DNA from: Nitrospinota bacterium
GTDB taxonomy: Bacteria; Nitrospinota_A; UBA7883; JACRLM01
Assembly: GCA_015231995.1 (NCBI GenBank)
Contig: JADGAO010000008.1
Coordinates: 1 to 28,695 of the forward strand
Reading direction: 5' to 3'
Length of the DNA: 28,695 nt
Positions 2,633 to 11,467 of the stretch are shown here, piece after piece (the first letter of the stretch is position 1; each line of letters begins with the position of its first letter). Position numbers and translations under genes: made by a program. The notes beneath the pieces were generated by a model. That model did no database searches, was not told where the DNA came from, and was given only the letters and a program-made list of their open reading frames with translations.

Positions 2633-3445
2633 TCACGAACTCCGCTTCATCAGCTCGGCCCTCACCTCTTCGGCGATCAACTCCTCTACACTGGCGTTGA
2701 GGCCAGGGGCCGGGGTCAGCGGGGCTTCCGCGTTCGTGGGACACGCGGAAAATTTGCCGCAGGCGTTGCACGAGTTGCACATGTCGGTAATAATCTTTTT
2801 CTTGGGCCAGCCCATCTTCTCGCCGATGGCCTGCAGGTTCTCTATCTGCGCGGCGGTCAACGGCTTTATATTGCCAATCTGCCGGGCGTGGAAGGTTATC
2901 TCCGCCACATGCTCCATCCGCTCCAGCGTGTTGTATGCGGCGAACACGTCCGTCCCCACCGTGACGGAGCCGTGACGGGCAAGTATCACCGCGTCGAAAT
3001 CCTTGATATGGCTCCTGACGGACTCGGCGACGTCAACCGTCGTAGGCGCGGCGTATTCGGCGGTTGGTATGGAGCCGAGCGTGAAGATGACCTCCGGCAG
3101 AAGGCATTTGGCAAGCGACACCCCAGCCAGCGAGAACGCCACGCACATCGTCGGATGCGCGTGGACGACCGAGTTTACGTCGGGCCGTTCGCGGTAGCAG
3201 GTCAGATGCAGGACCATCTCGGTGGACGGATTTCGCGAGCCTGCGATAAGTCTGCCGTCCATGTCCACCACGATAACGTCACGTTCGGACATGTAACCTT
3301 TGTGTATGCCCGTGGGGGTTATGAGGATTTTGTCGCGGGAGAGGCGCACGGAGACGTTGCCGTCCGTGCTGGATATCCATCCGCGATTGTGTATGCGTTT
3401 GCACACTTCAACGATGTCGCGCCTGCTTTGAGCTTCCGATTTCAT
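2633..3445 (-). CDS. Class II aldolase/adducin-family protein (L-fuculose-phosphate aldolase-like) with C-terminal Cys cluster and putative encapsulation peptide; BMC cargo
   Basis: 270 aa. 'GWISSTDGNVSVR..ILITPTG..HLTCYRERPDVNSVVHAHP' matches the class II aldolase fold including the metal-binding His region. C-terminal extension 'CNSCNACGKFSACP' is followed by a Pro/Ala linker and the amphipathic helix 'SVEELIAEEVRAELMKR'. It is the last gene of the BMC operon, overlapping by one stop/start with the BMC-P gene. Confidence 0.8.
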   Translation of the reverse strand: MKSEAQSRRDIVEVCKRIHNRGWISSTDGNVSVRLSRDKILITPTGIHKGYMSERDVIVVDMDGRLIAGSRNPSTEMVLHLTCYRERPDVNSVVHAHPTMCVAFSLAGVSLAKCLLPEVIFTLGSIPTAEYAAPTTVDVAESVRSHIKDFDAVILARHGSVTVGTDVFAAYNTLERMEHVAEITFHARQIGNIKPLTAAQIENLQAIGEKMGWPKKKIITDMCNSCNACGKFSACPTNAEAPLTPAPGLNASVEELIAEEVRAELMKRSS

Positions 3446-3448
3446 CTT

Positions 3449-3721
3449 CTACGCCTCCAGATCGACACTGTCCACGATCCCCTCGATAACCGAGTGGACG
3501 GGCGCGTTGTTATCCATAAAAAGCTGTCGCGCCGCGTTGCCTTCCACTGCAACCAGCACGACATCACCCGGCCCGGCCTGCGCGAAATCCACCGCCAGGA
3601 AGGTCTGCCCGTCGTCTTTCAGGTTTTCGTCGAGCGGCTGGACGATCATTATTTTGTGTCCGCGATAGACATCGTGTTGCACCGTGGACTGCACGTTGCC
3701 AACAACTCTCGCAAGTTTCAT
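3449..3721 (-). CDS. BMC vertex (pentamer) protein, EutN/CcmL/PduN family (BMC-P)
   Basis: 90 aa; 'MKLARVVGNVQSTVQHDVYRGHKIMIVQPLD..GPGDVVLVAVEGNAARQ' is the canonical EutN/CcmL pattern. Its start overlaps the upstream gene's stop (ATGA at 3718-3721). Confidence 0.85.
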   Translation of the reverse strand: MKLARVVGNVQSTVQHDVYRGHKIMIVQPLDENLKDDGQTFLAVDFAQAGPGDVVLVAVEGNAARQLFMDNNAPVHSVIEGIVDSVDLEA

Positions 3722-3990
3722 GGCGCCTCCCTGTTCACGATATCCACGATGCCGACGATGCCAGCGTCCACCGGGGTGAACGTCTCGTCGAGCGCCAGCG
3801 TGGCCTCTCTGCCAGCGACGTATGTAACGATGTCGCCTGGGCCGGACTGGATCGGGTCGGTTGCGATGATGGGCGAGCCTTTGGGTTTGCCGGCGTCGTC
3901 TATCGGCTGGATGATGAGTAGTTTCACCCCTTCGAGCGCCTCGTGTTTCACCGTCGCCACCACTCGTCCTATTACCTTGGCAAGATGCAT
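3718..3990 (-). CDS. BMC vertex (pentamer) protein, EutN/CcmL/PduN family (BMC-P)
   Basis: 90 aa; 'MHLAKVIGRVVATVKHEALEGVKLLIIQPID..GPGDIVTYVAGREA'. Second of three BMC-P paralogues. Confidence 0.85.
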   Translation of the reverse strand: MHLAKVIGRVVATVKHEALEGVKLLIIQPIDDAGKPKGSPIIATDPIQSGPGDIVTYVAGREATLALDETFTPVDAGIVGIVDIVNREAP

Positions 3991-3994
3991 GTCG

Positions 3995-4234
3995 TCAATC
4001 TCTATAATAGTATTTCATCGCTGTCCGGGGTGTTCTTCACCCCGGACTCTTATCCACGTGAACCTAACTTCGTCCCCCTTACCAAGGGGGACCGCCACGA
4101 AGTGGCGAGGGGGTTTAACCTCCCGGCGCTTTGCGCCACCCCCCTTATCAGGGGGGCTACCCCTCCGGCGCGATTACGCTCCACCTTCCCGATTTTCGGG
4201 GAGGAAAAAGAACACCCCGCCACGCGAAACCCGC
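3995..4234. repeat. GC-rich multi-hairpin intergenic element (family B), inverted partner of 7298-7545
   Basis: Contains 'cccccttaccaaggggga', 'ccccccttatcagggggg', 'ccggggtgttcttcaccccgg' and 'cccgattttcgggg'. The reverse complement aligns at roughly 75% by eye with 7340-7500 ('gcgccgggaggttaaaccccctcgcc..' vs 'gcgccggaggggttaggaaacccccgctcgc..'; 'cccctgataagggg' in both). Confidence 0.5.
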
Positions 4235-4792
4235 TTACAGCAGTTTGAGGTTTATGTCTTCATGCGGGTTGGGGATGATCTCTCTGCACACGAGCGTCCC
4301 TGCGGATTTGATTATCGCCACACCCGCCTCGACCGCCGCTTCCAGCTCGTTAAGCGGCCCGGTCATCGTGTAAAAAGATTTGCCGCCAAGCCCGTTGGCC
4401 ATGCGGACTTCGATCAGGCTAACGCCAGCCGCTTTCACCGCCGCGTCTGCGGAAAGTATCACAGAGGCCACGGTAAACGTCTCCACCACGCCGAGCGCAT
4501 CCATTTTGGGAACCACAGCGCAAGCCTGCATCGCAGGGATAAGCTGATGGCTCGCGTATGGCAGGAAAAGCTCGTCCACCACCATCTCCCCGCCGGTCGC
4601 CACGCCGATCCGATAAGACTCTTCCACCGCCGCCGTTTCCCCGGCGATGAGGATCATATATTTGCCGGGGCAAACAGTGCGCGCGTCCAGCAGGCGCACC
4701 GGGGCTTTCTTTACCATGTCGTCGGCGGTCTTCACCCCGCGCGCGATCGAGCGCAGTTCGATAAGCGCCACAGCTGGTTCTTTGAGGGTCAT
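4235..4792 (-). CDS. BMC-T shell protein with tandem BMC domains, PduT-like (resembles Haliangium BMC-T1); candidate Fe-S site
   Basis: 185 aa. Two BMC-domain cores: 'ALIELRSIARGVKTADDMVKKAPV' and 'ALGVVETFTVASVILSADAAVKAAGVSLIEV'. C-terminal 'IIPNPHEDI' parallels PduT 'VIPRPHEAM'. A Cys precedes the PGK motif ('TVCPGKYMIL') at the position of the PduT cluster ligand. Confidence 0.8.
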   Translation of the reverse strand: MTLKEPAVALIELRSIARGVKTADDMVKKAPVRLLDARTVCPGKYMILIAGETAAVEESYRIGVATGGEMVVDELFLPYASHQLIPAMQACAVVPKMDALGVVETFTVASVILSADAAVKAAGVSLIEVRMANGLGGKSFYTMTGPLNELEAAVEAGVAIIKSAGTLVCREIIPNPHEDINLKLL

Positions 4793-4901: not shown

Positions 4902-5960
4902 TCATTTTTTGTTTCCCCAAACATAATCGTTGTTTGTATAAACACGGTTTTCTCCGGGGCGTATCTCCTCAATGCGATCAACTTTGCCCCAGATATACTC
5001 GATATACCGCTCCTCGCCCCTTTCATAATATCTTTGCAACGCCCACAAACAGTAATCCACAACTTGCAACATAGGGTTTTGTGAAGGGTAGGTGCCGTTC
5101 AGCTGAATAAGTTTGCCTGAACGAACATGTTCACGTTGCATCTCATTAAGACGCAACATGTGTTTGACCTGATCCATAATTATCTTATGGTGCTTTAGAT
5201 TGCGAGATACTTCTTTCTGTTCACCTTCCAGGTCATCAAGAATGATCGTTACGTTCATATTCCCCGTCGCGCAATCTTCGGGTTGTATAAGTTGAAGCTT
5301 ATTGTCAATATCAGCCATTCTTTTCCTGATATCTTTTAATAGTTCATCGCCGAAGGCGAGGTGTGTTTCAACAGTATTGAAAATCTTTTCCCGCTCGTCA
5401 TAAAGAGCTTTCTCAAGAGCTTTTGTTTTTTCCCGGTTTCCCCGGAAAGCAAACAAAATATCTAGCCAATGGTTGGGATAATCTTTATTCAGCAAAAACG
5501 GCTTGAACAACTCGCGCGTCATTAATTCATAAGATTCGCTCTCTTTGTATCGGTAATTTTTATCCTCCAAATTCCTCGTCCGCACTGCGGCAAGCGTATC
5601 CTCCTTGTTTATTATGACGGCGGAAAACTTAATATCGAGTTTTTCAATAAACCTGTAAACCTTCCATCGAGCTTCGGGTATTTCATCTTTTGCGTGGAAT
5701 AACATTGCGGTCTTATTCGCCGAAGCCTGCATGGAAGGAACTTTCTTGAAATAGGGATCGCTACACAATTCTGATCTCAAGGAATCCAGTTCTTTTTCTA
5801 TGTGATTAGTTTCTTCGGCCGAGACAAAACCTAAAATGAAATATTTCGAGCACCCATCCGTTCCAATGATAACGTCACCGTGACGATTAAAAATAGCGCC
5901 ATCGCCGGTCTCATCCACGAAACAGCGCAATACTTTTATTGGATGTGGTGAAGAACTCAT
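4902..5960 (-). CDS. DUF3800-like protein (putative RNase H-fold/DExx-motif enzyme), compositionally foreign (low GC)
   Basis: 352 aa. N-terminal 'LRCFVDETGDG' resembles the DUF3800 'yiDESG' motif; C-terminal 'LQVVDYCLWAL' resembles its 'LQxaD' motif (family assignment from memory). GC is about 40% against about 60% in flanking genes. ATG at 5958-5960 overlaps the TGA of the PduS-like gene (ATGA). Confidence 0.5.
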   Translation of the reverse strand: MSSSPHPIKVLRCFVDETGDGAIFNRHGDVIIGTDGCSKYFILGFVSAEETNHIEKELDSLRSELCSDPYFKKVPSMQASANKTAMLFHAKDEIPEARWKVYRFIEKLDIKFSAVIINKEDTLAAVRTRNLEDKNYRYKESESYELMTRELFKPFLLNKDYPNHWLDILFAFRGNREKTKALEKALYDEREKIFNTVETHLAFGDELLKDIRKRMADIDNKLQLIQPEDCATGNMNVTIILDDLEGEQKEVSRNLKHHKIIMDQVKHMLRLNEMQREHVRSGKLIQLNGTYPSQNPMLQVVDYCLWALQRYYERGEERYIEYIWGKVDRIEEIRPGENRVYTNNDYVWGNKK

Positions 5961-7297
5961 TTCACTTGCCCGCTAATCCCGATGTGGCTTGTACTAATAG
6001 CGGTCACCACGCCGGAAATCGAGGCGTGGTATCTCGCGCCAAGTTTGCCCTCCGGTATCTCGCCGATCAACTGGCCCTTCGTCACTTTTTCACCCTGTTT
6101 CACAACGGGGAGCGCTGTAGCTCCGATATGCTGATTCAAAGGTATCCGCACGGACGATACAGGCCACGGCGCAGGGTCGAACGGCGCCTTAACGTCGTAC
6201 TCGCTAAGTCCGAGCCGTCTCATCAGCTTATCCGCCGGGACGCCACGGAACGGGCGGTAAGAATCTTGCGTCAGGTCTGCTCGCCTGTGCGGGTTTTTGA
6301 TTCCGGCCTCTCTCATCCGGCGTTTGAACTCCCGGTATATCACGCGGGGAGAGAGGAACATCGGACACGCCCACAGGTCACACAATCCGCACTCGCAACA
6401 GAGCCACGCCGACGTTATCGTGTCCGAATCCAGGTCGCGGTCATAGTTGATGACGCGCATTATTTTGTGAGGCTCCAGCCTGTGTCCCAAAAGGTAACGA
6501 GGGCAGAAATCGGTGCAGTACCGGCACACTTCGCAGGCGGATTTGCCGATGCGTATCTCCGTGGAGAGCGGACGCGCCATACGCATGACGTGGCTGTGGT
6601 CTTTCGGCAAAACGAAAAGCCCGCCGGTGGTCTTGGTAACGACCTCGTTCATATCCTCCGTGACACGTCCCATCATCGGGCCGTTGACCAGGATGACGTA
6701 GTCGTCTATCTTCACACCAAGGCGGGGGATGATTTCGCCAAACGCGGTTCCCACAGGGATGAACGCCACCTTCGGGTTGTCCATAGCCCCGCCAAGCGTT
6801 ACAATCCGCTCCGTCACCGGTTTGCCGTTCACGGCTTCTGCGATGTTCACCATCGTGCCCACGTTGATAACGACCACGCCGACATCCAGCGGGATGCCGC
6901 CTTCCGGCACGGCGCGGCCTGTGGCCTCGAATACAAGATAATGTTCATCGCCCGCAGGGTACACGTTGTCCAGCTCCAGCACGCTTACGCCATGCTTGCC
7001 AGCCTGATCCCGAAACGACTTCACCGCGTGGTCATATTTTTGTTTCACGCCGATGACGCCTTTAACCTCGGAGCCTGTCCGTCCCGAAATCTCATCTACG
7101 ATTTTTCTAAGCGTCGCCACGATATCGCCAGCGCGCGTTTCCATCAGATGAAGGTCGCCGCACATGAGCGGCTCGCATTCCGCGCCGTTGACGATGACAG
7201 TGTTGACGGCGGAGGCGAGTTTTATGTGAGTCGGGAACCCCGCGCCACCCGCGCCAATTACCCCGGCCTGCCGCGCTAAATCGGCTACAGTGGGCAT
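5957..7297 (-). CDS. RnfC/NuoF-like Fe-S flavoprotein, PduS-like (BMC-associated oxidoreductase)
   Basis: 446 aa. N-terminal Gly-rich nucleotide-binding motif 'VIGAGGAGFPTHIKL' (complex I 51K / RnfC). Two Cys clusters 'CEVCRYCTDFCP' and 'CCECGLCDLWACP' (2x[4Fe-4S]). C-terminal barrel-sandwich-like 'VKQGEKVTKGQLIGEI..ISGVVTAI'. Lies inside the BMC operon. Confidence 0.75.
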   Translation of the reverse strand: MPTVADLARQAGVIGAGGAGFPTHIKLASAVNTVIVNGAECEPLMCGDLHLMETRAGDIVATLRKIVDEISGRTGSEVKGVIGVKQKYDHAVKSFRDQAGKHGVSVLELDNVYPAGDEHYLVFEATGRAVPEGGIPLDVGVVVINVGTMVNIAEAVNGKPVTERIVTLGGAMDNPKVAFIPVGTAFGEIIPRLGVKIDDYVILVNGPMMGRVTEDMNEVVTKTTGGLFVLPKDHSHVMRMARPLSTEIRIGKSACEVCRYCTDFCPRYLLGHRLEPHKIMRVINYDRDLDSDTITSAWLCCECGLCDLWACPMFLSPRVIYREFKRRMREAGIKNPHRRADLTQDSYRPFRGVPADKLMRRLGLSEYDVKAPFDPAPWPVSSVRIPLNQHIGATALPVVKQGEKVTKGQLIGEIPEGKLGARYHASISGVVTAISTSHIGISGQVK

Positions 7298-7545
7298 AAT
7301 GCGGGATTGGTGTTGTTTGTCAAAGATCGGGTCGCGCCTCTTTTTGCCCCCGCCCCTTGCGGGAGAGAGCTTGCCCTGAGTCTTCCGAAGGGGTGGCTCC
7401 CCTGATAAGGGGAGGTGACGCGTCTTCGCGCCGGAGGGGTTAGGAAACCCCCGCTCGCTTCGCTCGCCGCCCCCTTGTCAGGGGGCCTAAGAACGTTACG
7501 CAAAGCCTCCCTAGGCACGGGGGACAAATGGAAGATTGGCATAAT
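7298..7545. repeat. GC-rich multi-hairpin intergenic element (family B), inverted partner of 3995-4234
   Basis: 'ctcccctgataaggggag', 'cccccttgtcaggggg', 'gcgccggaggggttaggaaaccccc'. Alignment with the reverse complement of 3995-4234 is given under that feature. Confidence 0.5.
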
Positions 7546-9003
7546 TCAAATGATCCTGAATCTGTCTTTTAACGTGCAACGGCGTTCCCGGGTGAAGTTT
7601 ATTGCCGTCGTCAGGCCCTCTCCGGTGGGGCTTGCTATCGTGAAAGATGTGTAACCCTCGCCGCCCCATCCGAGGCCGGCGTAGCTTGGGCCGTTCTTTA
7701 TGAAAAGGGAGGTGTTTATCGCACGCGCCATTTTCGACAGGTTGTCCACGTTCGTCGAATGCATCACTGCGGTGTGGCCGAAACCGTGTTCCACCTTTCT
7801 GGCGAGCTCGATACCTTCGTCCACATCGGCGACGCGCACGAGCGGCAACACAGGCGTCAACTGCTCCATTATGACGAGCGGGTTGGTTTTCTCCGCTTCG
7901 AATACGATGAGGCGCACATCCTCGGATGTCTCCACGCCGATGGCGCGTAATATCTTGCCCGCGTCTTTGCCCACCCAGCTTTTGTTCATCACCCCATGGT
8001 CGCCGGGGCCTTGCGGGGCGCGTTCTATTATGAGCTTCTCAAGTTTTTTCACCTGATGCGGGTTAAGCTCGTATGCGCCCGATTTTTTCATTTCGCGCTT
8101 AAGCGCGTCGGCGACCTTGTCCACGCAGATAAGGACTTTTTCCACTATGCACACTATATTGTTGTCGAACGAGGCTCCGTCAACCACATGCTTGGCCGCT
8201 TCGGCGATGTTGGCGGTTTCGTCAACGACGACGGGAGGGTTGCCCGGCCCTGCCGCGATTACTTTCTTGCCGGAGTTCATCGCCGCTTTCACGACGGCCG
8301 GCCCTCCGGTGACGACAAGCAGGCGTATGTCGGGATGGCGCATAAGCTCCCCGGCGCTCTCCACAGTGGGGCTTGCGATTTCCGTAAGCAGGTTCGCCGG
8401 GCCGCCAGCAGAGATTATCGCTTCGTTGAGCAGGTTGATCATGTACGAGGTGACGTTCTTCGCCGTCGGATGGGCGTTGAAGACGACCGCGTTGCCGCCT
8501 GCGATCATCCCAATGGCGTTGCACAGCACCGTCTCCGTAGGGTTCGTGCAAGGCGTGATGGAGCCGATGACCCCGTATGGCGCGCGTTCCATCAGCGCTA
8601 TGCCGTCGTCGCCTGTGAAGGCGCGAGGTTCCAGAATCTCGATTCCCGGCGTTTTTTCGACAGCGAGCGTGTTTTTGAGTATTTTATCGGCTACTCGGCC
8701 CAATCCTGTCTCCTCGACGGCCATCTTCGACAGGTTAGGTATCTCGCGCCGCACGGCTTCACGCATGGCGTTAATCATCAGCCTGCGTTCCGCCAGCGGG
8801 TATGAATCCAGCGAGATGAACGCCGCTTTTGCAGAAGCCACGGCCTCGTTGACAGTCGCGTAACTGCCGATACGTTTTCCGTTACTCGTGGGAATGGTTT
8901 GAGCTGGTAAAACCGGGGCCAGTTTCGCTCCGGCTTTGGAGGCGGAAAGCCTCGCCGCGACCCGTTCCACGATGCCCGCTATCTGGTCTTTGTCCAGCGT
9001 CAT
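7546..9003 (-). CDS. Aldehyde dehydrogenase (CoA-acylating, PduP/EutE-like) with N-terminal encapsulation peptide
   Basis: 485 aa Aldedh-family fold ('GSYATVNEAVASAKAAF..', 'ASPTGEG', conserved NAD-binding Gly-rich segments). N-terminal amphipathic helix 'DQIAGIVERVAARL' plus an Ala/Pro/Ser linker precede the catalytic domain. RBS 'GGAGG' sits 8 nt upstream. Confidence 0.85.
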   Translation of the reverse strand: MTLDKDQIAGIVERVAARLSASKAGAKLAPVLPAQTIPTSNGKRIGSYATVNEAVASAKAAFISLDSYPLAERRLMINAMREAVRREIPNLSKMAVEETGLGRVADKILKNTLAVEKTPGIEILEPRAFTGDDGIALMERAPYGVIGSITPCTNPTETVLCNAIGMIAGGNAVVFNAHPTAKNVTSYMINLLNEAIISAGGPANLLTEIASPTVESAGELMRHPDIRLLVVTGGPAVVKAAMNSGKKVIAAGPGNPPVVVDETANIAEAAKHVVDGASFDNNIVCIVEKVLICVDKVADALKREMKKSGAYELNPHQVKKLEKLIIERAPQGPGDHGVMNKSWVGKDAGKILRAIGVETSEDVRLIVFEAEKTNPLVIMEQLTPVLPLVRVADVDEGIELARKVEHGFGHTAVMHSTNVDNLSKMARAINTSLFIKNGPSYAGLGWGGEGYTSFTIASPTGEGLTTAINFTRERRCTLKDRFRII

Positions 9004-9018
9004 GAATCAAGCCTCCGG

Positions 9019-9333
9019 TCAGACATCCGCCGTTTTCGCAGACGCATACTTTGTGTAAACGGTCTTGTCGTCAACGTCCCATGTGTCCACGATGCCCATG
9101 ACGACAGCGTCCACAGGCTTGCCGTTGGTGATATCCGTCTGCCGCGCGGACGAGCCTGTGGCGTACAGCACCACCTCGCCAAGCCCCGCGCCAACCGAAT
9201 CCGCCGCCACGACGTAACCTTTGCCCACCTCGCCTGTGACATCCACGTTGCGCACGAGAAGCAGTTTTAACCCCTCAAGCGATTCCGCCTTGCGGGTCGA
9301 GACAACCGTCCCGGCCACTTTTCCGAACAACAT
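9019..9333 (-). CDS. BMC vertex (pentamer) protein, EutN/CcmL/PduN family (BMC-P)
   Basis: ATG at 9331-9333 gives '[49 protein letters not shown]'. The longer ORF-track N-terminus (to 9423) is not family-like and overlaps the BMC-H gene. Confidence 0.8.
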
Positions 9334-9337
9334 GGCT

Positions 9338-9631
9338 TCACTCCGCCGCGATGGCTTTTCTGCCCAGCGGAAGCGCAAGGTCGATGTTGCTGTGCGGCCT
9401 GGGGATGACATGGACGGAGACAAGCTCGCCCACTTTCTCCGCCGCGCGCGAACCGGCCTCGGTTGCCGCCTTCACAGCCGCAACGTCGCCGCGCACGATG
9501 GCGGTGACATACCCTCCGCCGATTTTCTCGTATCCCACCAGCTCGACCTTCGCCGCTTTCAGCATGGCGTCGGAGGCTTCGACCATGCCGACAAAACCCT
9601 TGGTCTCGATCATTCCCAATGCGTCTGACAT
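9338..9631 (-). CDS. BMC-H hexameric shell protein (PduA/EutM/CcmK family)
   Basis: ATG at 9629-9631 gives '[63 protein letters not shown]', a near-consensus BMC domain. The upstream TTG in the ORF track is unlikely to be the start. Confidence 0.9.
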
Positions 9632-9655
9632 CTTTGACAATCTCCAAAAAAGACG

Positions 9656-10291
9656 TTATTCAGCTTTTCCCTTTTTCGCTGCTTTTCCCGTGACGCTCTC
9701 CAGAGCTTTCACGGCGGCGTCTGCGGCGGAGTCGATCTCCGCTTCAGAGCCTGACATGTAAAGCCGTCCGAACGCGCCGAACGGCCGCACTTCCACTAGT
9801 TTTACGTTGGCCGCTTTCTCCGCCTCGTTCGCGGCGAAAATGGCGTAACCGGCAGGCTCTGTCTCCAGTATGAAAAGCGACTCGCCCGGCAAAATCATGG
9901 AGCCGCTTTTGTTCCTGTTGATGAGCTGGCACTGGTAAGCCTCCATGCTCCGTATGATCTGGTTGGCGACGATGGTGGGCTTTATCCTGTCGGCCTCTGT
10001 GACGCCCAGATGGTCGAGTATCGCCCTCCCGGCGCTTATAACCTCGCCTTTGTCCATGTCGTGCACTTCAAGAAGGCCGTAAGCGCGTTCGACAATCTGC
10101 ACGGCTGGCTGGACTTTCGTGGCTTTCAGAGCCACGTCGGTCACGCGGTTGATGGCCAACCCCGGAGCAATCTCCACAAACAGGGACGCAACCCCCGGCA
10201 CGGGCAGGAAACCTTTGGCGGTGGAGCCTATGTAGGAGGCCAGCTGATCCTGGAGGCTGTCGAGGAATATGAAAGTCCTAAGTGTGATCAT
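9656..10291 (-). CDS. BMC-T shell protein with tandem BMC domains, CcmP/CsoS1D-like (resembles Haliangium BMC-T2)
   Basis: Start '[71 protein letters not shown]' and second domain '[47 protein letters not shown]' closely parallel, from memory, the Haliangium ochraceum BMC-T2 sequence ('[62 protein letters not shown]'). ATG at 10289-10291. Confidence 0.75.
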
Positions 10292-10337
10292 TTTTTCAAA
10301 TACCCCTGTCAATTCCCGTTGTATGTTTCTTGCGCGA

Positions 10338-11153
10338 TCAATACTGCTTCGCTGTTATCACGTCTTCGATCTTCCGTATGCTGGTGAGCGCCCTCTCGCC
10401 GCGCCGCAACCCCAACGCCACATGCAGAAGGTCTATGATGCTCGCCTGCGCGATTCTGGAGGCCAAAGCCTCGCTCCGAAACCTCGTCTCCTTGCTCGAT
10501 GTCACCAACGTCACGTCCGACGCTTTCGCAAGCGGCGACAACAGGCTGTTCGTCACCGCAACGGCGCGAGCGCCCGCGTTGCGCCCGACCCGCACCGTCT
10601 CCACCGGGTCCTTGGTGGAGCCGGAATGGCTTATCGCCAATATCGCGTCGCCTTTTTTAAGCAGGGCCGCCTCCATCATCTGCAGGTGTCCGTCTGTCTG
10701 CAAAGTCACCGGAAGCCCAAGCCGCATAAGCTTCGTGTACGCGTCGAACGCGATGGGAGCCGACGTGCCTACGCCGATAATAAGAGTTCTACCCGCATTG
10801 TCCAGTATGCCGATGGCCCGCTCCACGGAACGTGGGTCTATCACGGCGAGCGTGTCTTTTAATGTGCTGATGTTGGCTTCGAACACCTTGCCCGCCAGCG
10901 CGGCCACGTCGTCTTTTTCGGTGATAGCCTCGTGGATCGCGCCTGCGATGGGTGTTACAAGCTCACGGGCCAGGGCTATCTTAAGGTCGGCGAAACCGAG
11001 GAAATTGGCCGCCCTGCAAAACCGTATGACCGTGGCCTCGGATACACCCGCTTCCCGCGCCACCTCGCCGACAGACATGCCGATGGCGTTCTCCGCGTTT
11101 TTCAATATGAACTCGCCCACCTTGCGCTCCGCCGGTAGAAGGGACGGCAACAT
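10338..11153 (-). CDS. RpiR/MurR-family transcriptional regulator (HTH_6 + SIS phosphosugar-binding domain)
   Basis: From ATG at 11151-11153: '[45 protein letters not shown]' is the canonical RpiR N-terminal HTH. SIS domain '[35 protein letters not shown]'. Co-oriented and 25 bp upstream of the first shell gene. Confidence 0.8.
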
Positions 11154-11467
11154 GCCGCTCACTTTCCCGGTGGCGCCCGGCCCGTGGGCGCGGCTGACTG
11201 CTCCCCTTGTCTTTGGCCTACGCTGTGATCTTCCGGTTGCTATGGTCATATCCATTCCACTTTCCATGAGGCTCTTCGCAGTCTCGATGATTATAGTCCG
11301 CGCCATTCCGCGTGTCAAGTAAAACTACATATCAATTAAGTATCCATGAAGTAAAATTTCATAGAACGCATGGTTGCAAGGTGGCCGCTGACCAGTTTTG
11401 ATTTTAGGGCGTTGCGGGGGCAATCTTGGGGGGCGTGGAAGAAATGTCCGGCGCTGAGTGGGACGCC
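11154..11467. promoter_or_regulatory. Large intergenic/5' region upstream of the BMC regulator and operon, AT-rich core with small inverted repeats
   Basis: The 11319-11380 stretch 'taaaactacatatcaattaagtatccatgaagtaaaatttcatagaacgcatgg' is markedly AT-rich in a GC-rich genome. It contains the IR 'atgaa-N7-ttcat' and the outer IR 'ccatg..catgg'. Likely promoter and operator region; no specific site is proven. Confidence 0.3.

Follow-up and report, generated by a model that had tools for sequence, protein, structure and literature searches.

Encapsulation peptides (EPs) at the C-terminus have been described for the PF00596 aldolases that are encoded together with shell genes in bacterial microcompartment (BMC) loci of the PVM, PVM-like, GRM5, ACI, SPU5 and HO types (Aussignargues et al., 2015, PMC4594438; Sutter et al., 2021, PMC8217296). 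In the earlier survey 21 of 23 BMC-associated aldolases carried such a peptide, behind a linker of 23–81 residues for which no conservation of composition or sequence was seen (Aussignargues et al., 2015), and C-terminal EPs were later noted also for the ACI and SPU5 aldolases (Sutter et al., 2021). Here we describe the aldolase that ends a BMC operon in a Nitrospinota bacterium (NCBI GenBank assembly GCA_015231995.1, contig JADGAO010000008.1, positions 1 to 28,695; this whole stretch of 28,695 nucleotides is referred to below as the window). Like the published enzymes, it is a PF00596 aldolase encoded with shell genes, and it ends in a helix of the kind described for them, about 17–20 residues of alternating hydrophobic and hydrophilic character at the extreme C-terminus, preceded by a poorly conserved linker that measures about 37 residues from the end of the core domain, against the published 23–81. 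There is one key difference: the published work treats the whole stretch from domain to EP as unconserved linker, whereas in the family of the window protein the first 7–14 residues of this stretch are an invariant C-x2-C-x2-C motif coupled to a cysteine of the catalytic domain, Cys114. The aldolase, the type of operon and the EP are all of known kinds; judged from sequence, the Cys motif appears to be an overlooked trait of the whole family.

The aldolase gene occupies positions 2633..3445 of the minus strand and encodes 270 amino acids plus a stop codon, as given by the open reading frame list and the match to PF00596; all features of the protein described below lie on that strand. The catalytic domain (aa 1–212, 2810..3445), delimited by global alignment and by the predicted local distance difference test (pLDDT) scores of an AlphaFold2 (AF2) model, is equivalent to full-length E. 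coli FucA, and is followed by a C-terminal extension of 58 residues. This extension starts with a tail base that links the Cys motif to the last core helix (aa 213–222, WPKKKIITDM, 2780..2809; pLDDT about 91 for aa 211–220), continues with the Cys module, defined by translation and conservation (aa 223–236, C223-N-S-C226-N-A-C229-G-K-F-S-A-C235-P236, 2738..2779), and with a flexible Pro/Ala-rich linker (aa 237–249, TNAEAPLTPAPGL, 2699..2737), and ends in the candidate EP helix (aa 250–269, NASVEELIAEEVRAELMKRS, 2639..2698). On re-translation, positions 2636–2800 give aa 216–270 as KKIITDM, the Cys module, TNAEAPLTPAPGL and NASVEELIAEEVRAELMKRSS, with the stop codon at 2633–2635; the strings, the C-x2-C-x2-C-x5-C-P spacing and the coordinates reported for this tail in a first-pass annotation of the window are all exact.

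The C-x2-C-x2-C motif is found at the same place in 121 of 121 proteins, namely the 120 best database homologues and the window protein itself, a count that includes two N-terminally truncated entries which a position filter had missed and in which the motif is present. The consensus is C-[NDE]-x-C-N-A-C. In the alignment referred to here as A1 (80 sequences, 52–91% identity), C223, C226 and C229 are invariant columns within a region that is otherwise unalignable. On this pattern of conservation the motif is not a product of chance, and the first-pass annotation's own test, whether homologues share the Cys cluster, came out in its favour. It could still be held that Cys is abundant here by accident of linker composition and serves no particular function, a view that the lack of conservation seen in the published survey of aldolase linkers would suggest. 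We find this scarcely credible, since the motif is kept in every family member down to about 52% identity, its three columns are invariant where nothing around them can be aligned, its state co-varies with Cys114, and the same survey ranks the aldolase linker first among all linkers in Cys content, at 5.5% (PMC4594438 Table 2). Searches of the PDB by sequence and by fold found no solved aldolase with such a tail, and no NCBIfam model covers it; in both cases the matches stop at about aa 206–216. The first-pass annotation had called a Cys module untypical of aldolase_II enzymes, which is true of the solved and curated class II aldolases, from which it is absent, but in the BMC-associated branch the module is the rule. 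A literature search of open-access papers and preprints, which included PvmN and the H. ochraceum aldolase, found no mention of the Cys motif or of its Cys114 partner, and a homologue search started from the Minicystis protein discussed below gave no match named Haliangium ochraceum.

The universal fourth cysteine lies in the catalytic domain. Cys114 (codon 3104..3106), in the loop before the invariant L116-P117-E118, is likewise invariant in A1, and its conservation and co-variation lead us to propose it as a partner of the tail cysteines or the fourth ligand alongside them. Aligned to FucA without gaps, it falls at Ile111, two residues before Tyr113′; neither FucA nor the other solved aldolases have Cys at this position. 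Among the genomic relatives, comprising 48 related loci from a scan of one genome per species, a Cys-rich tail is accompanied by C114 in all of the 35 or so cases, with CxxCxxC and H-C-x-C tails alike. Where there is no tail, or a tail free of Cys, position 114 is mostly Ser (L030), Thr or Asp (L032-34), Pro (L041, L046), Ile (L047) or Lys (L045). A broader sample came from a HMMER search run exhaustively over 1.84 billion cluster representatives, with 11,778 relatives at E ≤ 1e-3, at least 5,000 of them at E ≤ 1e-10. The 150 best are 29–60% identical to the window protein; with two-domain fusions removed there were 141 representatives, clustered at 50% identity, 78 of which have tails of at least 25 aa. 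The presence of at least one tail Cys is associated with C114 at an odds ratio of 8 (p = 1.5e-7, n = 141, from counts that ignore phylogeny). For the 78 longer tails, representatives with C114 have 0, 1, 2, 3, 4 and 5 tail cysteines in 2, 10, 7, 15, 0 and 2 cases respectively, and those lacking C114 in 17, 9, 10, 0, 5 and 1. A total of four cysteines is reached either with three in the tail plus C114 or with four in the tail, and three tail cysteines without C114 are found in 0 of 78.

Individual lineages show the same coupling. In the L030/P0305 lineage C114 (replaced by Ser) and all three cysteines of the motif have been lost together, and neighbours at 74–76% core identity keep both. Decaying motifs (L027, L031, P0307, P0310, P0313) retain the first tail Cys along with C114, and in 8 of the 13 relatives that have C114 and a single tail Cys, the latter is 8–9 residues after Gly212. 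Across the tails of diverse relatives the first Cys lies preferentially 8–11 residues after this glycine, and the distance from the motif to the C-terminus ranges from 25 to 117 aa. The aldolases of five BMC loci from the PVC group and uncultured metagenome-assembled genomes (MAGs; L036, L037, L038, L040, L042) have H-C-V-C-A in place of CxxCxxC, three residues closer to the core and with C114 kept, a combination that may represent a 3Cys-1His variant of the same putative site.

The first-pass annotation had described the module as ferredoxin-like, C-x2-C-x2-C-x5-CP, which would imply a self-contained Fe-S or Zn site made by C223, C226, C229 and C235-P with no help from the core. The spacing is as described, and when the isolated tail was scanned at E ≤ 10 it gave weak matches to three Pfam 4Fe-4S models, extending over KKIITDMCNSCNACGKFSACP (E 0.03–0.07). 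Moreover, 40 of 50 members of the Nitrospinota-type clade, which includes the window protein (CNxCNAC[GNS][KR]), have an extra Cys within 12 residues, and four tail cysteines stand without C114 in P0135, P0140, P0179 and P0269. For P0140 this means Ala114 and the tail CSACVGCGAC, in a locus with the order aldehyde dehydrogenase (AldDH), BMC, BMC-P, BMC-P, aldolase, like that of the window. As a conserved unit, however, the four-Cys tail does not hold: C235-P is found only in the Nitrospinota-type clade, where 10 of 50 lack it, including the 88% identical P0004 with Phe in place of C235, and the Myxococcota-type sister clade (C[DE]xCNAC[PS]) has a fourth tail Cys in 0 of 64. The spacing to the fourth tail Cys varies from 4 to 12 residues, and C114, the invariant fourth cysteine, is present wherever the tail has only three. 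The Pfam scores are below every gathering cut-off (Fer4_6 14.6 vs 25, Fer4_2 13.8 vs 24.5 and Fer4 13.4 vs 21.1 bits), and the tails of three relatives gave no match in a Pfam scan at E ≤ 10. A site confined to the tail thus seems improbable to us.

P0135, one of the proteins without C114, is worth describing in its own right. Encoded at 8001-8807 of L050/L051, it has Leu114, the tail CTNCGAC followed by a fourth Cys, and an EP-like end. No shell genes were found within 8 kb; its neighbours form a sugar cluster with RhaA, ribulose-P 3-epimerase, a PfkB kinase, an ABC transporter and Dak1/Dak2, which hints at a rhamnulose-type substrate for this branch.

The coupling of C114 to the tail could also be explained without a metal, by disulfides such as C114 with C223 that act as a redox switch or as a covalent tether for the tail. 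It is consistent with this that many relatives have just C114 and one tail Cys at a fixed distance, that decaying tails keep exactly this pair, and that the total of C114 and tail cysteines is even in 59 of the 78 representatives. The bacterial cytoplasm is, however, reducing, and a Gly or Asn behind the second Cys, as in C-x2-C-[G/N]-x-C, is a usual mark of metal knuckles. The preference for a total of four, attained by two alternative routes, fits a single tetrahedral or cubane site better than two disulfides, and His appears in variants, at position 3 of the motif in 40 of 64 members of the Myxococcota-type clade (CDHCNAC) and in the HCVC of the PVC group. On these grounds we consider disulfides unlikely.

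The reading we favour, to which we give slightly better than an even chance of being correct, is that the gene encodes a signature cargo aldolase in which C114 and the tail cysteines share a metal site that holds the tail base in place, with the linker and EP hanging from it. The C-x2-C-x2-C motif and Cys114 of the catalytic domain would together make a four-ligand metal centre, and this centre would anchor the proximal tail to the rim of the inter-subunit active site, at the loop which in FucA holds the catalytic Tyr113′. The disordered Pro/Ala linker (aa 237–249) would hang from the pinned base, and the helix of about 20 residues with its conserved hydrophobic stripe (aa 250–269) would recruit the aldolase into the shell, such that the aldehyde is released next to an EP-tagged aldehyde dehydrogenase. 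In FucA, Tyr113′ reaches the active site of the neighbouring subunit (PMC11841055) and a residue of the C-terminal tail, Tyr209, also completes the neighbour's active site (PMC5434028); because both elements converge there, and because the motif lies about 11 residues past the last core helix, a contact between C114 and the tail is sterically reasonable. PDB entries of the FucA mutants Y113F/Y209F are among the Foldseek matches to the window protein.

Whether such a centre would hold Zn or Fe-S is evenly balanced: we give about equal weight to a structural Zn(Cys)4 site and to a ferredoxin-like Fe-S cluster held by three neighbouring ligands and a distant fourth. An Fe-S cluster is favoured by the C-x2-C-[G/N]-x-C pattern, the 3+1 arrangement of ligands, the sub-threshold Fer4 matches and the Fe-S-rich context of the organelle. 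Compared with the [4Fe-4S] motif of ferredoxins (Pfam Fer4, CxxCxxCxxxCP), the window tail shares the two-residue spacing of three cysteines, a residue after the second that is small or suits a left-handed turn (Gly in ferredoxins, Asn here), hydrophobic residues before the first and a Cys-Pro nearby, and the proposed role of C114 would mirror the remote ligand of single-cluster ferredoxins. It differs in having a spacing of x5 rather than x3, in that its Cys-Pro is not conserved and its scores are below the Pfam thresholds, and in that the putative cluster would sit outside any ferredoxin fold, on an aldolase without redox chemistry. This absence of redox chemistry is a point in favour of Zn, as are the Cx2Cx2Cx7C lobe of alcohol dehydrogenase (ADH) and the existence of His-containing and short variants. 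In horse liver ADH the structural Zn lobe is formed by Cys97, Cys100, Cys103 and Cys111; the C-x2-C-x2-C spacing there binds a single non-catalytic Zn, with a structural role near the subunit interface, alongside the catalytic Zn of the same enzyme. The resemblance lies in this spacing within an enzyme with a catalytic Zn, whilst the fold is unrelated and the four ligands of ADH are in one loop, as opposed to a conserved fourth ligand about 110 residues away in the window aldolase.

Several observations weigh against a pinned metal site. AF2 confidence is only moderate where it matters, with a pLDDT of 66 for the Cys-motif region (aa 221–230, with a short helical turn predicted at 223–225) and 76 for the block that contains the C114 loop. 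The clade of the window protein has five cysteines, C114 and four more, which leaves it ambiguous which four would bind, and the H-C-x-C of PVC-group relatives means that a single chemistry may not serve for every member. Some EP-bearing aldolases lack Cys, which makes the site dispensable for an encapsulated aldolase. The co-variation counts take no account of phylogeny, and C114 is found without tail cysteines in L044, P0131, P0174, P0216 and P0231, so it can be kept for other reasons. A more elaborate version, which we regard as doubtful, would make an Fe-S cluster at the active-site rim ([4Fe-4S], or a 3Cys-1His [2Fe-2S] cluster in the HCxC variants) a sensor of redox state or oxygen that turns aldehyde production on only when the PduS-/PduT-like electron outlet keeps NAD+ regenerated.

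For the end of the tail, the first-pass annotation had proposed an amphipathic, EP-like helix behind a Pro/Ala linker. The AF2 model predicts a helix at aa 250–269 (pLDDT 80–83) and disorder at aa 232–247 (pLDDT <50), and among the 121 tails the linker columns are unconserved and rich in Pro, Ala, Ser and Gly. Within the last 32 residues of the 121 members, five columns at i, i+1, i+4, i+8 and i+12 are 98–99% hydrophobic, with acidic or basic columns between them, and the mean hydrophobicity profile of the family peaks at 90–100 degrees per residue (p = 0.011 at 100 degrees; p <2e-4 when the maximum over 90–110 degrees is taken). The window's own sequence is a weak example: its 17-residue helix has an Eisenberg moment of 0.21 at 100 degrees, not above that of shuffled sequences, and its best 11-mer reaches only 0.53 (z = 0.34 against shuffles). 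The best 11-mers of four experimentally validated EPs have moments of 0.61–0.82. The amphipathic pattern is therefore clear at the level of the family only, and the helix of the window protein is itself weakly amphipathic; the helix and linker proposed in the first-pass annotation are supported. That the aldolase is lumenal, as was also suggested, is the expected reading given an EP-like helix, a BMC operon, a gene that begins 3 nt from a BMC-P gene and the precedent in the family (PMC4594438; PMC8217296). Aldolase EPs are already known for this family and are no discovery, and we take the encapsulation of the window aldolase to rest on the family literature.

A different view would make the Cys motif part of the targeting device, in contact with shell proteins instead of the aldolase core; the PduT-like BMC-T or the PduS-like protein might, for instance, bind a cluster or metal jointly with it. 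The locus does encode a PduS-like Fe-S flavoprotein and a BMC-T with the CPGK motif, and the motif lies within what the literature defines as the EP linker (PMC4594438). It is, however, placed directly after the catalytic domain, 20–110 residues from the EP, and co-varies with a core residue, C114. Dependence on the PduS/PduT pair is rejected by two loci, L018 and L026, that lack both proteins within the locus, and BMC-Ts as well, and still have the motif and C114; stand-alone genes such as that of Minicystis keep the motif too. The idea that the motif belongs to the EP is likewise rejected by the Cys-free, EP-bearing aldolases of L041, L046 and L047. For these reasons the putative metal site appears to be separate from targeting, and a targeting role for the cysteines is, in our view, very unlikely.

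The stand-alone aldolase of Minicystis rosea (CP016211.1; L025, 9935-10831) has CDHCNAC, C114 and an EP-like tail, with no shell genes within 10 kb; its neighbours encode an MscS-like channel, a tRNA_anti-like protein and a DctQ-like protein. The same picture is seen at several more loci of Myxococcota.

The catalytic domain itself is that of a dihydroxyacetone phosphate (DHAP)-type class II aldolase. Pfam Aldolase_II (PF00596) covers aa 10–184 (E 7.8e-50, 169.7 bits vs a cut-off of 22.2), and the AF2 model, built with A1 as input, has a mean pLDDT of 87.7, the core scoring 87–98 except for the block at 111–120 (76). Foldseek matches it to FucA and YgbL with probability 1.00 and TMt 0.87–0.89 over about 200–216 columns. 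In a global alignment with the E. coli FucA sequence, in which the published residues fall at the right numbers, the FucA Zn ligands E73, H92, H94 and H155 correspond to E76, H95, H97 and H158 of the window aldolase, and the phosphate-site residues N29, T43, G44, S71 and S72 to N30, T45, G46, S74 and T75; both sets are invariant or near-invariant in A1. Judged on these residues the enzyme looks active and Zn-dependent. The likeness to FucA thus extends to the fold (TMt 0.88), the His3/Glu Zn site and the DHAP-phosphate site, but identity is about 29%, and the position of Tyr113 is taken by Leu116, the first residue of an L-P-E that is invariant in A1. FucA also lacks Cys114 and an EP and ends where the Cys motif begins, its C-terminus being reached at about aa 218 of the window aldolase, with the remainder extra. 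NCBIfam models of the FucA type score 99–125 bits at best, vs cut-offs of 250–400, and no equivalog cut-off is reached. On this sequence evidence the enzyme is not FucA proper, and with the equivalog scores missed and Tyr113 replaced by Leu116, no substrate is assigned to it.

The operon runs on the minus strand and contains six shell genes, for three BMC-P, one BMC-H and two BMC-T proteins. Directly upstream of the aldolase, which begins 3 nt after the nearer of them on the same strand, are two BMC-P (EutN/CcmL) pentamer genes (3449-3721 and 3718-3990; Pfam PF03319, E 1.8e-23 and 1.5e-28). These are preceded by a tandem-domain, PduT-like BMC-T with the CPGK motif as VCPGKY (4235..4792; two stretches of Pfam BMC, and NCBIfam eut_PduT-like below its cut-off) and by a PduS-like flavo-Fe-S protein with a Nuo51 FMN domain, a 4Fe-4S dicluster and RnfC_N (5957..7297; Pfam, and NCBIfam RnfC-like). 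Next comes an acylating aldehyde dehydrogenase that bears an EP-like helix at its N-terminus, DQIAGIVERVAARL (7546..9003; Pfam Aldedh, and NCBIfam NF011927 at 665 bits, above cut-off). Its N-terminus, MTLDKDQIAGIVERVAARL, forms an EP-like amphipathic helix whose best 11-mer moment, 0.61, exceeds that of the aldolase EP. A third BMC-P (about 9019-9333, Pfam EutN), a BMC-H (9338-9640, Pfam BMC) and a CcmP-like double-domain BMC-T (9656-10312; Pfam BMC, and NCBIfam CcmP-like at 284 bits, below cut-off) follow, and an RpiR/SIS-family regulator stands at the head of the operon (10338..11318; Pfam HTH_6 and SIS), syntenic in related Nitrospinota loci. The same gene order is found in more than 15 of the 48 related loci, mostly Nitrospinota MAGs, and the order BMC-P, BMC-P, aldolase recurs among related loci.

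Loci of the HO type (type II) are described as having a BMC-P triplet, a double-stacking BMC-T, an AldDH, and two BMC-P genes with an aldolase (Sutter et al., 2021, PMC8217296), and the window matches this description in its three EutN/CcmL genes, its CcmP-like BMC-T, its AldDH and its BMC-P-BMC-P-aldolase order. Two BMC-P genes followed by the aldolase is the arrangement of both the HO type II main loci and the type I satellite loci (Sutter et al., 2021). In gene content and order the locus is akin to HO and PVM-like loci and fits a metabolosome of the aldolase type. It is not of the SPU type, because no DERA or RpiB gene is present. The locus has no phosphotransacylase or alcohol dehydrogenase gene. 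The CPGK Fe-S motif of BMC-Ts has been described, and electron export through the shell was recently proposed for PduT-/PduS-like pairs of this kind (PMC12747264); regeneration of NAD+ by such export appears to be the likely cofactor logic of the locus.

Three further features of this region may be noted. A DUF3800 gene (4902-5960, minus strand; 352 aa, Pfam E 9.8e-10) lies inside the operon between the PduS-like and PduT-like genes; its GC content is 0.42–0.44, vs 0.58–0.60 in the flanks, and the genes that flank it abut in syntenic Nitrospinota loci, which makes it look like a foreign insertion. Two intergenic gaps within the operon, 3991-4234 and 7298-7545, are about 245 bp each, compared with about 5–30 bp in syntenic loci. 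A stretch of about 55 nt in one gap recurs in the other in opposite orientation (4141-4190 vs 7385-7440, 84–89% complementary), which suggests copies of a small repeated element similar to miniature inverted-repeat transposable elements (MITEs) or repetitive extragenic palindromic (REP) sequences. On the plus strand, a MIP-family channel gene of the aquaporin/glycerol-facilitator type (1872-2618, Pfam E 6.9e-42) runs towards the aldolase gene, the two stop codons being 14 bp apart; the channel may bring a small polar metabolite to the organelle or take one away.

Aldolase-type metabolosomes, among them the PVM, PVM-like, HO and ACI types, occur widely. Work on shell structure and engineering takes its main model shell from the HO type, the function of which has been called enigmatic (PMC8217296). 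In these signature enzymes a linker supposed to be unconserved opens with a Cys motif that is invariant and has co-evolved with an active-site-rim cysteine. Those who express, assay or truncate such aldolases, or borrow their tails as targeting tags, should therefore expect a putative second metal site. If the metal proves to be Fe-S, a non-redox enzyme would join the Fe-S proteins of the organelle, which would suggest redox control of aldehyde production; and if the sensor reading were true, a non-redox signature enzyme of a BMC would be gated by an Fe-S cluster.

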